Assembly: GCF_030013595.1 (NCBI RefSeq)
Contig: NZ_CP122768.1
DNA: 64,000 bases
Direction: 5' to 3' (one strand)
Source of the DNA: Escherichia coli
Lineage (GTDB): Bacteria > Pseudomonadota > Gammaproteobacteria > Enterobacterales > Enterobacteriaceae
How positions within the stretch are numbered: the first letter of the stretch is position 1; each line of letters begins with the position of its first letter. Shown here piece after piece: positions 2,121 through 36,569 of the stretch. The position numbers were made by a program, and so were the translations under genes. The notes beneath the pieces are model-generated. The model saw only the letters and a list, made by a program, of their open reading frames with translations. It made no database searches and was not told the DNA's origin.

Positions 2121-5100
2121 TCAGCTGATACTGATGCCTGCGGTGGCTTTCTTCATCACCACAACCAGCAAATCGCTGATACTTGCTGTGGGATACCAGT
2201 TATTTACCAGCCATGCTGACACCGAAAACTCCAGTGTCATGTGACCGTGACCGGCAGGCATATCAATAACACCACTGTAAATCAGCGTATTATCCAGCGC
2301 GGTACGGTTATAAATTTCAGCACCGTTTTTCCGTACTATCAGACGGCATGAGGAGTAAATATCAGTATGCTCTTTCTCATGTTTAGCGCCGCTGAATGCC
2401 ACCGCCGGAATAACAATCTGCCGGTCAAACGGCTGATCGTCATAAACCCTGACGGTGATGGTCCCTGATGGCCACCGTTCCGGTGCACGGGAGTCCCGGG
2501 GGAAAGCTTTGCCCACTGTTTTAACGAGATCGCCTTCAATCTGGTTCGCGGACAGTTTTCCCAGAACCCGACAGTTCTCGTTAATCGTGACGTTGTTGAG
2601 CGTCCCGGAGTTCGCATTCACGTTACCGCTGATATCGGCATTTTTCGCCGTCAGCCGCCCGTCCGGTGTCAGGGAAAATGCCGGTGGATTTCCGCCGCTG
2701 GTAATGGTGGGAGCCGTCAGGCGTTTCAGGAACACGTCGTTCATGAATATCTGATCGCCCTGACCAACAAACATCGGCTTTGTGTTGCCATTCGCAGGAT
2801 TAATCATCGCAATCCGGTCAGCAGCCAGAAGCACCTGACTCTGCATACCTGCTGGCGTATTCTCAATACCGGCTCCGATACCCGCAATATAAAGGCGTCC
2901 GTCCTTCATCTGCTGCAGTTTCACGGCCCACATGCTGTTCAGGTTATTATTTGTATCAACCTGAACTTTCTGTATCTGCTGGATTGCCGCGCTCTGATTT
3001 TCCAGTTTCTTATTGACGGTCTGTGTGATTTCATTGCTGACATCCGTAATGGACGTCCTGATTTCAGCCAGGTCAGGCGCAAGCTGATCGTTATCAATCT
3101 GCGTCCACAGCTCCTGAGCCAGATGGGTTTTCCCTATCTCGCCTTTGAAAAAATCCAGATAGCCGGATGCGTCATCACTCGGCTGACCGACAGCCTCCAC
3201 GAATGCCGATTTGCCAACAGTGTTCACACTGCGAACGTAAAAATAATAATCATGGCCCGGCTTAATATTGATACTGGCAGCTATCCAGTACAGCGCCGTA
3301 CCAAGATAGCGCGCTGTGGTTTCAACCTGCCTGATATCCGCAATCCGCTTTTCCGAGAACCAGAACTCAAACTGTACCGTCGGATCATAAACGGCAAGAT
3401 GCGGCGTGGCGGTTATCTGAAAATAGCCCGGCGTCAGCTCAATCCGCGACGGTGCTGCCGGTGCGGCAATCCGGAACGATACCGATGCCGGATCGCCCTG
3501 CTGTCCCCACGCATTTACCGCCCGGACTGTCAGCCTGTAGTTCCCCAGCGCCAGCTGCCTGAAGCGGTATGTGGTTTCCGTCGTCCGGGCCGTGCTGACC
3601 AGCCGCTCACTGCCGTCATCGGCGGCCACGGTCAGGCGAAGCATAAAGCTCACACCCTTCACCACCTTCGGCGTGTCCCAGCGCGCCAGCACCTGATACT
3701 CCCCACTGTCTGCGGTGACTTCTGCGGTCAGGTGCTGCACCGCTGGCGGCGTGACACCATTCACCGTGCCGCTCTGGTCGCCGTCAAAGTGCGCCCCGTT
3801 ATCCACGATGGCTTCTTTCTCCGGTACATGCTGCACGGCAGTGATGGCATACGTGCCGTCATCGTTCTCACGGATACTCACACAGCGGAACAGGCGCTGG
3901 CGCAACGTCGGCAGCTTCAGCCCCCACACGCTGTATTCTGCAACGCCGTCAGGAACACGGCTCACTTTCACCTTCACACCGTCGGTGACGGACTGAACCT
4001 CCACGCTGACCGGATTGCCACTTCCGTCAACCAGGCTTATCAGCGTGGTACCGGAGGATGGCAGCGTGATTTCACGGTCGAGCGTCAGCGTCCGGGTCTG
4101 GCTGTTCACCGCCAGCACGCGCCCGCCGGTGCTGATACCGGCATAGTCATCATCGCAGATTTCAATGACATCGCCCGGCACATGGCGAAGCCCTTCTGCG
4201 CCCACGCTGAAATCCACGGTCTGCGTTTCCAGCAGTTCCGTTTTAATCAGCCACAGCCCGGCGCGGTGTGCCTGCCCCCGGCTGGTACAGCCAAAGGCAT
4301 CCATCTTCGTAACATTACGACCGTAACGGGCAATGGCCTGCGTATCTTCAACAAGCTCTGTCGCCGTCTCCCAGCCGTTATCCGGGTCAATCCAGTTCAC
4401 CTCAACGGCATTATGGCGGTCCTTCAGGGCGCTGAAGCTGTAGCGGAACGGCGCGCCATCATCCGGCATCACCACATTACTGCGGTTATAGGTCCACACC
4501 TTATCCGACGGTCGGTCCTGCACGAACGTCAGCGTCTGCCCGTTCCATACCGGCATACAGCGCATCGCCGAGCAGAAATCGCTGAGCACATCCCACGCCT
4601 TACGTTGTGTGGTCAGCCAGGCATTACAGGTGATGCGCGGCTCCGTGCCGCCAAAACCGTCCGGCACCGACTGGTCGCAGTACTGGCCGATGACATACAG
4701 CGCCCATTTATCCACATCTGCCGCACCAAGACGTTTCCCCATGCCGTAGCGCGGATGGGTCAGCATATCCCACAGACACCAGGCCATGTTGTTGCTGTAT
4801 GCTGGCTTAAACGTTCCATCCCAGATACCGCTGTATTGCCGCGTCTGCGGGTTATAGTTCGACGGCACCTGCAGAATGCGCCCGCGCAGATGATAATTAC
4901 GGCTCACCTGCTGGCTGCCGAACTGCTCCGAGTCCACCTGCACGCCGACCAGTGCCGTGTTCGGGTAGCACTGTTTCACATCTATAATTTCGGTGTATGA
5001 CGACCAGAGCGTTTTGTTCTGCAGCTGGTCTGTGGTGCTGTCCGGCGTCATCCTGCGCATCCGGATACTGAACGGGCGCGGCGGCAGGTTATCCACCACC

Positions 5101-5600
5101 ACCGAGGCCAGATACTGCGAGGTGGTTTTGCCCTTAATGGTGATGTCTTTTTCCGTCACCCAGCCACCGTTACGTTGTATCTGAACCAGCAGGCGGACTT
5201 CCGATGGATTCCTGTCACCCTTTGAGGTGGTTTCCACCAGTGCCTGCACACCGAAGGTAAAGCGCAGTCGGTCGATGTTTGCCGACGTGATGGCGCGGGT
5301 GATCGGCGTGTCGTATTTCACTTCCGTACCCAGCACCGTCTCGGAGCCGGAGGATTCAAATCCCTCCGGCGGAGTCTGCTCCTGCTCACCAGCCCGGAAC
5401 ACCACCGTGACACCGGCGATGTTGGTATTCCCCTCACTGTCCAGCACCGGCGTACTGTTCAGCAGCACGCTTTTTAATCCATCCACCGGACCTTCAATCG
5501 GCCCTTCACTGATGGCATCAATCACACTCAGCAACTGCGTGGATTTCAGGTTGTCCTTCGCTTCGCGCGGGGTATGCCCCTTACTGCTGCCTTTACCCAT
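2121..5600 (-). CDS. J: tail tip host specificity protein J
   Basis: 1159-aa ORF, ATG start, λ gene order (downstream of I), λ J-like sequence. Confidence 0.9.
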
Positions 5601-34380: not shown

Positions 34381-34452
34381 GCGCGGCGTTACCGCATACC
34401 AATAACGCTTCACTCGAGGCGTTTTTCGTTATGTATAAATAAGGAGCACACC

Positions 34453-34617
34453 ATGCAATATGCCATTGCAGGGTGGCCTGTTGCTGGCTGCCCTTCCGAA
34501 TCTTTACTTGAACGAATCACCCGTAAATTACGTGACGGATGGAAACGCCTTATCGACATACTTAATCAGCCAGGAGTCCCAAAAAATGGATCAAACACTT
34601 ATGGCTATCCAGACTAA
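34453..34617 (+). CDS. cIII: CIII (FtsH inhibitor)
   Basis: 54 aa MQYAIAGWPVAGCPSESLLERITRKLRDGWKRL… as λ CIII. Confidence 0.9.
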   Translation: MQYAIAGWPVAGCPSESLLERITRKLRDGWKRLIDILNQPGVPKNGSNTYGYPD

Positions 34618-34729
34618 ATTCACTATCGCCACTTTTATTGGCGATGAAAAGATGTTTCGTGAAGCCGTCGACGCTTATAAAAAATGGATATTAATGCTGA
34701 AACTGAGATCAAGCAAAAGCATTCACTAA
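34586..34729 (+). CDS. kil: Kil (host cell division inhibitor)
   Basis: 47 aa [34 protein letters not shown]… overlapping cIII 3' end. Confidence 0.8.
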
Positions 34730-34804
34730 CCCCCTTTCCTGTTTTCCTAATCAGCCTGGCATTTCGCGGGCGCTATTTTCACAGCCATTTTCAGGAGTTC
34801 AGCC

Positions 34805-35101
34805 ATGAACGCTTATTACATTCAGGATCGTCTTGAGGCTCAGAGCTGGGCGCGTCACTACCAGCAGATCGCCCGTGAAGAGAAAGAGGCAGAACTGGCA
34901 GACGACATGGAAAAAGGCCTGCCCCAGCACCTGTTTGAATCGCTATGCATCGATCATTTGCAACGCCACGGGGCCAGCAAAAAAGCCATTACCCGTGCGT
35001 TTGATGACGATGTTGAGTTTCAGGAGCGCATGGCAGAACACATCCGGTACATGGTTGAAACCATTGCTCACCACCAAGTTGATATTGATTCAGAGGTATA
35101 A
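34805..35101 (+). CDS. gam: Gam (RecBCD inhibitor), 98-aa short form only
   Basis: λ Gam core sequence from [21 protein letters not shown]; upstream extension is in another frame. Confidence 0.85.
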
Positions 35102-35106
35102 AACGG

Positions 35107-35892
35107 ATGAGTACAGCACTCGCAACGCTGGCAGGGAAGCTGGCTGAACGTGTCGGCATGGATTCTGTCGACCCACAGGAACTGATCACCACTCTTCGCC
35201 AGACGGCATTTAAAGGTGATGCCAGCGATGCGCAGTTCATCGCATTGTTGATCGTCGCCAACCAGTACGGCCTTAATCCGTGGACGAAAGAAATTTACGC
35301 CTTCCCTGATAAGCAGAACGGCATCGTTCCGGTGGTGGGCGTTGATGGCTGGTCCCGCATCATCAATGAAAACCAGCAGTTTGATGGCATGGACTTTGAG
35401 CAGGACAATGAATCCTGTACATGCCGGATTTACCGCAAGGACCGTAATCATCCGATCTGCGTTACCGAATGGATGGATGAATGCCGCCGCGAACCATTCA
35501 AAACTCGCGAAGGCAGAGAAATCACGGGGCCGTGGCAGTCGCATCCCAAACGGATGTTACGGCATAAAGCCATGATTCAGTGTGCCCGTCTGGCCTTCGG
35601 ATTTGCTGGTATCTATGACAAGGATGAAGCCGAGCGCATTGTCGAAAATACTGCATACACTGCAGAACGCCAGCCGGAACGCGACATCACTCCGGTTAAC
35701 GATGAAACCATGCAGGAGATTAACACTCTGCTGATCGCCCTGGATAAAACATGGGATGACGACTTATTGCCGCTCTGTTCCCAGATATTTCGCCGCGACA
35801 TTCGCGCATCGTCAGAACTGACACAGGCCGAAGCAGTGAAAGCTCTTGGATTCCTGAAACAGAAAGCCTCTGAACAGAAGGTGGCTGCATGA
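35107..35892 (+). CDS. bet: Bet (Redβ single-strand annealing protein)
   Basis: 261 aa λ Bet-like. Confidence 0.9.
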
Positions 35893-36569
35893 CACCGGAC
35901 ATTATCCTGCAGCGTACCGGGATCGACGTGAGAGCTGTCGAACAGGGGGATGATGCGTGGCACAAATTACGGCTCGGCGTCATCACCGCTTCAGAAGTTC
36001 ACAATGTGATAGCAAAACCCCGCTCCGGAAAGAAATGGCCTGACATGAAAATGTCCTACTTCCACACCCTGCTTGCCGAGGTTTGCACCGGTGTGGCTCC
36101 GGAAGTTAACGCTAAGGCGCTGGCCTGGGGAAAACAGTACGAGAACGACGCCAGAGCCCTCTTTGAGTTCACTTCCGGCGTGAATGTTACTGAATCCCCG
36201 ATCATCTATCGCGACGAAAGTATGCGCACCGCCTGCTCTCCCGATGGTTTATGCAGTGACGGCAACGGCCTTGAACTGAAATGCCCGTTTACCTCCCGGG
36301 ATTTCATGAAATTCCGGCTCGGTGGTTTCGAGGCCATAAAGTCGGCTTACATGGCCCAGGTGCAGTACAGCATGTGGGTGACGCGAAAAGATGCCTGGTA
36401 CTTTGCCAACTATGACCCACGAATGAAGCGTGAAGGCCTGCATTATGTCGTGGTTGAGCGGGATGAAAATTACATGGCGAGTTTTGACGAGATGGTGCCG
36501 GAGTTCATCGAAAAAATGGACGAGGCACTGGCTGAAATTGGTTTTGTATTTGGGGAGCAATGGCGATGA
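35889..36569 (+). CDS. exo: Exo (λ 5'-3' exonuclease)
   Basis: 226 aa λ Exo-like. Confidence 0.9.

Follow-up and report, generated by a model that had tools for sequence, protein, structure and literature searches.

The gam gene of the lambda-type prophage in the stretch of Escherichia coli DNA analysed here (64,000 nt of contig NZ_CP122768.1, hereafter the window) reads, with a probability that we put at about 0.9, as an ordinary cistron for the 98-residue GamS form of the protein, with a non-functional ATG at 34684 upstream of it; on this reading the TTTT run in the gam leader is a common allele, and the 138-codon ORF of phage lambda is a less common state that is not conserved. Allele frequency, conservation across the Gam family and the gene's own Shine-Dalgarno (SD) sequence are the grounds for this reading, and therefore for taking the gene as the standard GamS cistron and the lambda 138-codon ORF as the minority state. 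The SD (AGGAG, 34793-34797) would drive translation of the 98-residue GamS from 34805, and the ATG at 34684 is probably not a working Gam start, as it has no SD and as a difference in the length of a T-run leaves it at the head of an out-of-frame ORF of 50 codons.

Positions 34453-36569 (+ strand) of the window hold the leftward early block of a lambda-type prophage, cIII-kil-gam-bet-exo, as identified from the list of ORFs and from annotated homologous records. The lambda-matching part of the window, running from int to nin (45%, a 24-kb stretch), is about 98% identical to lambda. The features on which the analysis draws are the following.

34440-34498, + strand: cIII thermoregulator (RF01804), lying over the start of cIII; Rfam match of 88.5 bits, E 4e-22; an expected, known element.
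34453..34617, + strand: cIII, 54 aa, the first gene of the block; an ORF annotated as cIII in lambda, 933W and Stx2-86.
34586..34729, + strand: kil, 47 aa; Pfam PF06301 (Lambda_Kil), 72.4 bits; PGAP gives kil as 144 nt in matching genomes.
34684..34836, + strand: out-of-frame ORF of 50 codons, a remnant of the lambda GamL extension, overlapping the end of kil and the start of gamS.
34730..34804, + strand: kil-gam intergenic leader, 75 nt, with a C-run (34730-34734) and a T-run (34788-34791), as delimited in the haplotype alignment.
34748..34750, + strand: TAA stop in the gamS frame, closing that frame 18 codons 5' of the gamS ATG.
34788..34791, + strand: TTTT run, which is TTT in lambda; the 1-nt difference breaks the long ORF.
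34793..34797, + strand: SD of gamS, AGGAG, 7 nt 5' of the ATG.
34805..35101, + strand: gam (GamS form), 98 aa, predicted RecBCD inhibitor; Pfam PF06064 and matches to GamS structures.
35107..35892, + strand: bet, 261 aa; an ORF that is bet in homologous records.
35889..36569, + strand: exo, 226 aa; an ORF with a YqaJ-family exonuclease at the homologous position in related loci.

With bet (RecT-like) and exo (YqaJ-like) adjoining it downstream and with kil and cIII upstream, gam stands in the red-operon context of its family, and in lambda the gene (NC_001416 32816-33232, annotated as the 138-aa GamL) occupies the same position within cIII-kil-gam-bet-exo. At 34805-35101 the lambda Red operon carries its gam gene intact and in ordinary form, a standard GamS cistron in its commonest allelic state.

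Residues 1-98 of the Gam core encoded in the window cover all of the 98 positions of the Pfam profile PF06064 (profile positions 1-98) with 216.8 bits against a cut-off of 25. Over its full length the core shares 95 of 98 residues (about 97%) with the GamS chain 5mbv_A (E about 2.5e-61), and it likewise matches 2uuz_A from end to end (E 2.6e-61). The solved Gam structures are structures of GamS: the core aligns through residues 1-98 with 2UUZ/2UV1 (crystal) and with 5MBV (the RecBCD-GamS complex, cryo-EM), and no structure is known for the 40-residue GamL extension. Three substitutions separate the core from the GamS of 5MBV; compared with lambda gam the 98-aa core differs at two residues (L22I, S61A), and the SD and the start context are identical. 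GamS corresponds to residues 41-138 of full-length Gam, its dimer sits in the DNA site of RecBCD, and it is active in vivo (PMC5218532). Given the identity of about 97% to the protein in the RecBCD-GamS structure, the Gam encoded here would be expected to bind and inhibit RecBCD (PMC5218532).

The ATG that corresponds to the GamL start lies at 34684-34686, within the last 46 nt of kil and in another frame. A preliminary description of this DNA had reported an ATG at about 34687 that opens a GamL-like extension; the ATG and the extension are borne out, and the position was 3 nt off. The ORF that starts there was given as about 42 codons long, but it has 50 codons and ends at TGA 34834-34836. 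Its residues 1-36 are those of the lambda GamL extension except for T5A, P25L and Y35H, and its frame leaves that of lambda after codon 36. The description was correct in placing extension and core in different frames: the core ORF is one frame over from ATG 34684, the two ATGs being 121 nt apart compared with 120 nt in lambda, and the core frame is closed at TAA 34748-34750. It was also correct that the core frame has no start upstream of 34805, as none of the 18 open codons that follow this TAA is ATG, GTG or TTG.

Alignment to lambda gam, which had been proposed as a check on these claims, shows that the frame structure is not shared: lambda is in frame, with 138 codons, unlike the window. 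The arrangement that defines the 138-aa GamL, an in-frame ATG 120 nt upstream with an open ORF in between, is absent here, and the 121-nt spacing of the window leaves the 98-aa form only. That no Gam other than the 98-aa protein can be made without recoding, as had been stated, is a direct consequence of the frame structure, and from the sequence we would expect no long Gam product from this prophage.

In the alignment with lambda NC_001416 a single extra T separates the two frame states, the window reading AGCCATTTTCAGGAG (TTTT, 34788-34791) and lambda AGCTATTTCAGGAG. This T lies directly 5' of the SD AGGAG and is linked to a substitution at 34786, two bases upstream of the T-run (T in lambda, C here). 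The 138-codon ORF is broken in the window because the one extra T puts ATG 34684 out of frame. Since short homopolymers are the usual site of sequencing and assembly errors, an artefact of this kind had to be weighed, and the allele counts make it exceedingly improbable. The exact 90-mer of the window across the site has perfect (100%) matches in 47 records of complete E. coli genomes; searched as a 40-mer, the TTTT allele is present in 2236 of 5426 complete genomes (2537 places) and also stands in the Sanger-era phage records of 933W and Stx2-86. We therefore rejected sequencing error on the allele counts and regard resequencing as unnecessary, because the 47 records were independently sequenced and the TTTT run recurs in 2236 genomes.

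The corresponding 40-mer of the lambda TTT allele has hits in 900 complete genomes (972 places); the two probes cannot cross-seed, as megablast requires an exact shared word of 28 bases. Phage isolate records divide into 89 with TTTT and 90 with TTT, the latter figure being inflated by many laboratory derivatives of lambda. The Stx phages 933W, Stx2-86, BP-4795 and AU5Stx1 have the TTTT allele and the 121-nt spacing seen here, and they are 98.9-99.5% identical to the window over cIII-kil-gam, with few SNPs (for example GCGCTAT here and GCGATAT there, or CCCCC here and CCCCA there after the kil stop). The remainder of the window is closer to lambda than to the Stx phages, and the close lambda relatives in the phage collection share the cIII-kil-gam block (652 nt) with the window at about 99% DNA identity. 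In the two Stx-phage records that were inspected, 933W and Stx2-86, gam is annotated with 98 aa, as here. The TTTT state is natural and common: 933W, Stx2-86, BP-4795 and thousands of E. coli prophages have it as well. The anomaly or prophage defect that the preliminary description had implied does not hold up, as it is the in-frame long ORF that is in the minority among close relatives.

This minority was counted by searching IMG/VR for the gamS start context, which gave 120 stretches; once the window and the reference phages were added, the set for classification comprised 122 sequences, all of them close relatives and phylogenetically non-independent. The in-frame 120-nt spacing of lambda occurs in 23 of the 122. 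A further 33 have kil upstream with the frame or the ATG lost, through a 121-nt spacing (26), a 119-nt spacing caused by a shorter C-run after the kil stop (6) or a mutated ATG context, ATGTAT (1). In 66 of the 122 a different gene takes the place of kil and the GamL ATG is absent. A long Gam would thus be possible in only about one fifth of the close relatives. The replacement gene encodes a protein of 68-97 aa (C-terminus …RDLLVEVFLDGRGNGLNH, followed by the stop), for which a Pfam search gave no match. The 66 relatives share a mosaic junction at which homology to the window resumes exactly at the stop of the replacement gene (CACTAA; equivalent to 34727-34729), and 3' of it leader and gam hardly differ from those of the window; these relatives are locus L007 (- strand, 5082-5372) and some 65 others in IMG/VR. 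In the haplotype alignment the leaders of the relatives vary in their C-runs (4 to 6) and T-runs (2 to 4), and one 12-nt deletion occurs.

The same distribution bears on an explanation in which GamL is a real, functional second isoform of lambda-type phages that this lineage has lost by a one-base insertion. Lambda Gam has been described as two isoforms, GamL and GamS, and cloned GamL is active, in some fluoroquinolone-potentiation assays at least as active as GamS (PMC5218532); the GamL extension can thus be tolerated, and a role for it in lambda itself is conceivable. Across the 23 in-frame haplotypes the extension is open and its peptide is well conserved, with few amino-acid changes; the ratio of synonymous to non-synonymous changes is 5:5 in the extension after the kil stop, where there are only 10 variant sites, and 37:36 in gamS. 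At about 1:1 in both regions, these counts, like those by codon position, do not tell coding from non-coding sequence and speak neither for nor against coding constraint within the in-frame lineage. Against isoform loss stand the lack of an SD at the upstream ATG, several independent breaks of the frame (by the C-run, by the T-run and by the change of ATG to ATGTAT), the different upstream gene and missing ATG in more than half of the close relatives, and the absence of the extension from every divergent homologue. We consider isoform loss unlikely, and keep a modest probability for GamL as a real product of lambda because the cloned protein is active (PMC5218532). The extension itself would, as far as the comparison of frames indicates, be free of protein-coding constraint.

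The reading of gam as a GamS cistron extends to the family at large. Clusters of Gam proteins retrieved with the 138-aa protein of lambda, from E. coli, E. albertii, Salmonella, Citrobacter and Raoultella, are nearly all of 97-100 aa; only three clusters are of 138 aa, all of them small and with 59 members in total, compared with 1844 members in one 98-aa cluster alone. The Pfam profile PF06064 matches residues 41-138 of lambda GamL, and PGAP calls a 98-aa gam also at loci that have the long ORF in frame. In the Salmonella homologues (72% amino-acid identity) the upstream similarity is confined to ATTCAGGAGTTCAGCC and ATGAACGC, that is, to SD, spacer and start codon, and divergent homologues cannot be aligned to the window upstream of the SD. 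A second E. coli Gam lineage, with 81% amino-acid identity, starts within the 3' end of a RecE-like gene.

In this second lineage (loci L126-L128, 1501-1797; N-terminus MSTCPIFDRIEEQ…) gam overlaps the large RecE-like (Exonuc_VIII) gene by 23 nt, and homologues of bet and exo still lie downstream. Among the predicted proteins there are also rare ones of 171-213 aa from run-level assemblies (P0002, P0005-P0008) that combine a Kil (PF06301) and a Gam (PF06064) domain; presumably these fusion calls represent other frame states of the homopolymer runs, or assembly errors.

The two candidate starts differ in their translation signals. The duplex of the gamS SD with the 3' end of 16S rRNA has a calculated energy of -6.9 kcal/mol, and kil, cIII, bet and exo range from -6.9 to -8.5 kcal/mol; the ATG at 34684 gives +0.2 kcal/mol and has no complementarity to the anti-SD, and so no SD. 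The minimum free energy (MFE) of the kil-gam leader is -18.8 kcal/mol, no better than that of shuffled sequences (z -1.2), and an Rfam scan found no element in the leader, the cIII thermoregulator being the only one nearby. A structured regulatory or recoding RNA in the leader is unsupported in view of this z-score and of the lack of an Rfam match.

These signals also bear on the idea that programmed +1 frameshifting or transcriptional slippage at a T-run restores a long, GamL-like protein. A +1 shift at any point of 34751-34833 would join the frames of extension and core, and two slippery UUU-C codons lie in this interval, UAU UUU C at 34773-34779 and CAU UUU C at 34786-34792, followed by the A-site codons CAC and CAG; at both, tRNA-Phe could re-pair from UUU to UUC. 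In the prfB-type +1 frameshift site, CUU UGA C, an SD stands 3 nt upstream. The arrangement here is unlike that of prfB, as the A-site codons are neither stop nor rare, hungry codons and as the only SD (34793-34797) is downstream. Runs of four T do not suffice for efficient transcriptional slippage, and lambda, which is in frame, has the same context, so that nothing in it is specific to a need for frameshifting. Nor is an arrangement that requires a frameshift conserved, since relatives have spacings of 119, 120 or 121 nt, have lost the ATG or carry another upstream gene. With no SD at the upstream ATG few ribosomes would enter that frame, and the leader offers neither an Rfam element nor a fold that stands out from shuffles. 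Recoding thus appears very improbable. A weaker and more exotic form of the idea is that low-level +1 frameshifting at CAU UUU C might give some long Gam in phages with the TTTT allele.

A further alternative takes the 50-codon ORF at 34684-34836 for a small protein gene in its own right. It is an open frame that begins with ATG, and its equivalent has been annotated once publicly, in Stx2-86 alone, as 'gam alternate'. It has no SD and a Pfam search of its product gave no match; the 119-, 120- and 121-nt alleles give it entirely different C-terminal parts, relatives in which kil is replaced lack the ORF, and it lies wholly inside kil, the leader and the 5' end of gamS. We find such a gene very hard to credit, and judge the ORF not to be one.

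For annotation, the GamS reading means that the 98-aa start at 34805 is correct, that gam needs no frameshift or pseudogene flag here, and that the 50-aa 'gam alternate' should not be annotated. Current annotation practice and the family models already agree with this finding. Beyond the window, the 40-residue N-terminal extension of lambda GamL is unconserved among Gam-encoding phages, which provides a small piece of comparative evidence about lambda. We give about even odds to the view that the 138-aa GamL of lambda, far from being a conserved isoform, is an accidental, lineage-restricted ORF that arose from a one-base length state of the T-run near the 3' end of kil; if this is true, the 'two isoforms of Gam' would be a matter of cloning-era annotation rather than of phage biology. 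The non-conservation of the extension also bears on whether a GamL or a GamS construct is chosen for recombineering, cell-free expression or work on RecBCD inhibition.

Several smaller observations concern the leader and its surroundings. In the MFE fold of the leader (z -1.2), CCUGU at 34737-34741 pairs with CAGGA at 34792-34796, which contains part of the gamS SD, and such pairing would occlude the ribosome-binding site. A weak terminator-like hairpin with a T-tract is located in the leader at 34754-34771 (+ strand; GCCTGGCATTTCGCGGGC followed by GCTATTTT); position 34757 within it is T here and C in lambda, and the stem would stay paired (C-G to U-G). Another terminator-like hairpin with a T-tract lies 5' of cIII at 34404-34423 (+ strand; AACGCTTCACTCGAGGCGTT followed by TTTCGTT). 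The hairpins at 34404-34423 and 34754-34771 may be the counterpart of the tL2 terminator cluster located between bet and ral.

In Stx-phage records kil is given as an 89-codon ORF that starts almost at the start of cIII (34460-34729 in the window; 308-577 in loci L002 and L003), whereas kil has 47 aa (34586-34729) according to PGAP and in lambda; the 89-codon version looks over-extended. Finally, the record MW057783.1 ('Campylobacter phage CJLB-4', 48.4 kb) matches the window as lambda does, with 45% coverage, 97.9% identity and the same gene names, and it looks like lambda under another name, or like contamination.
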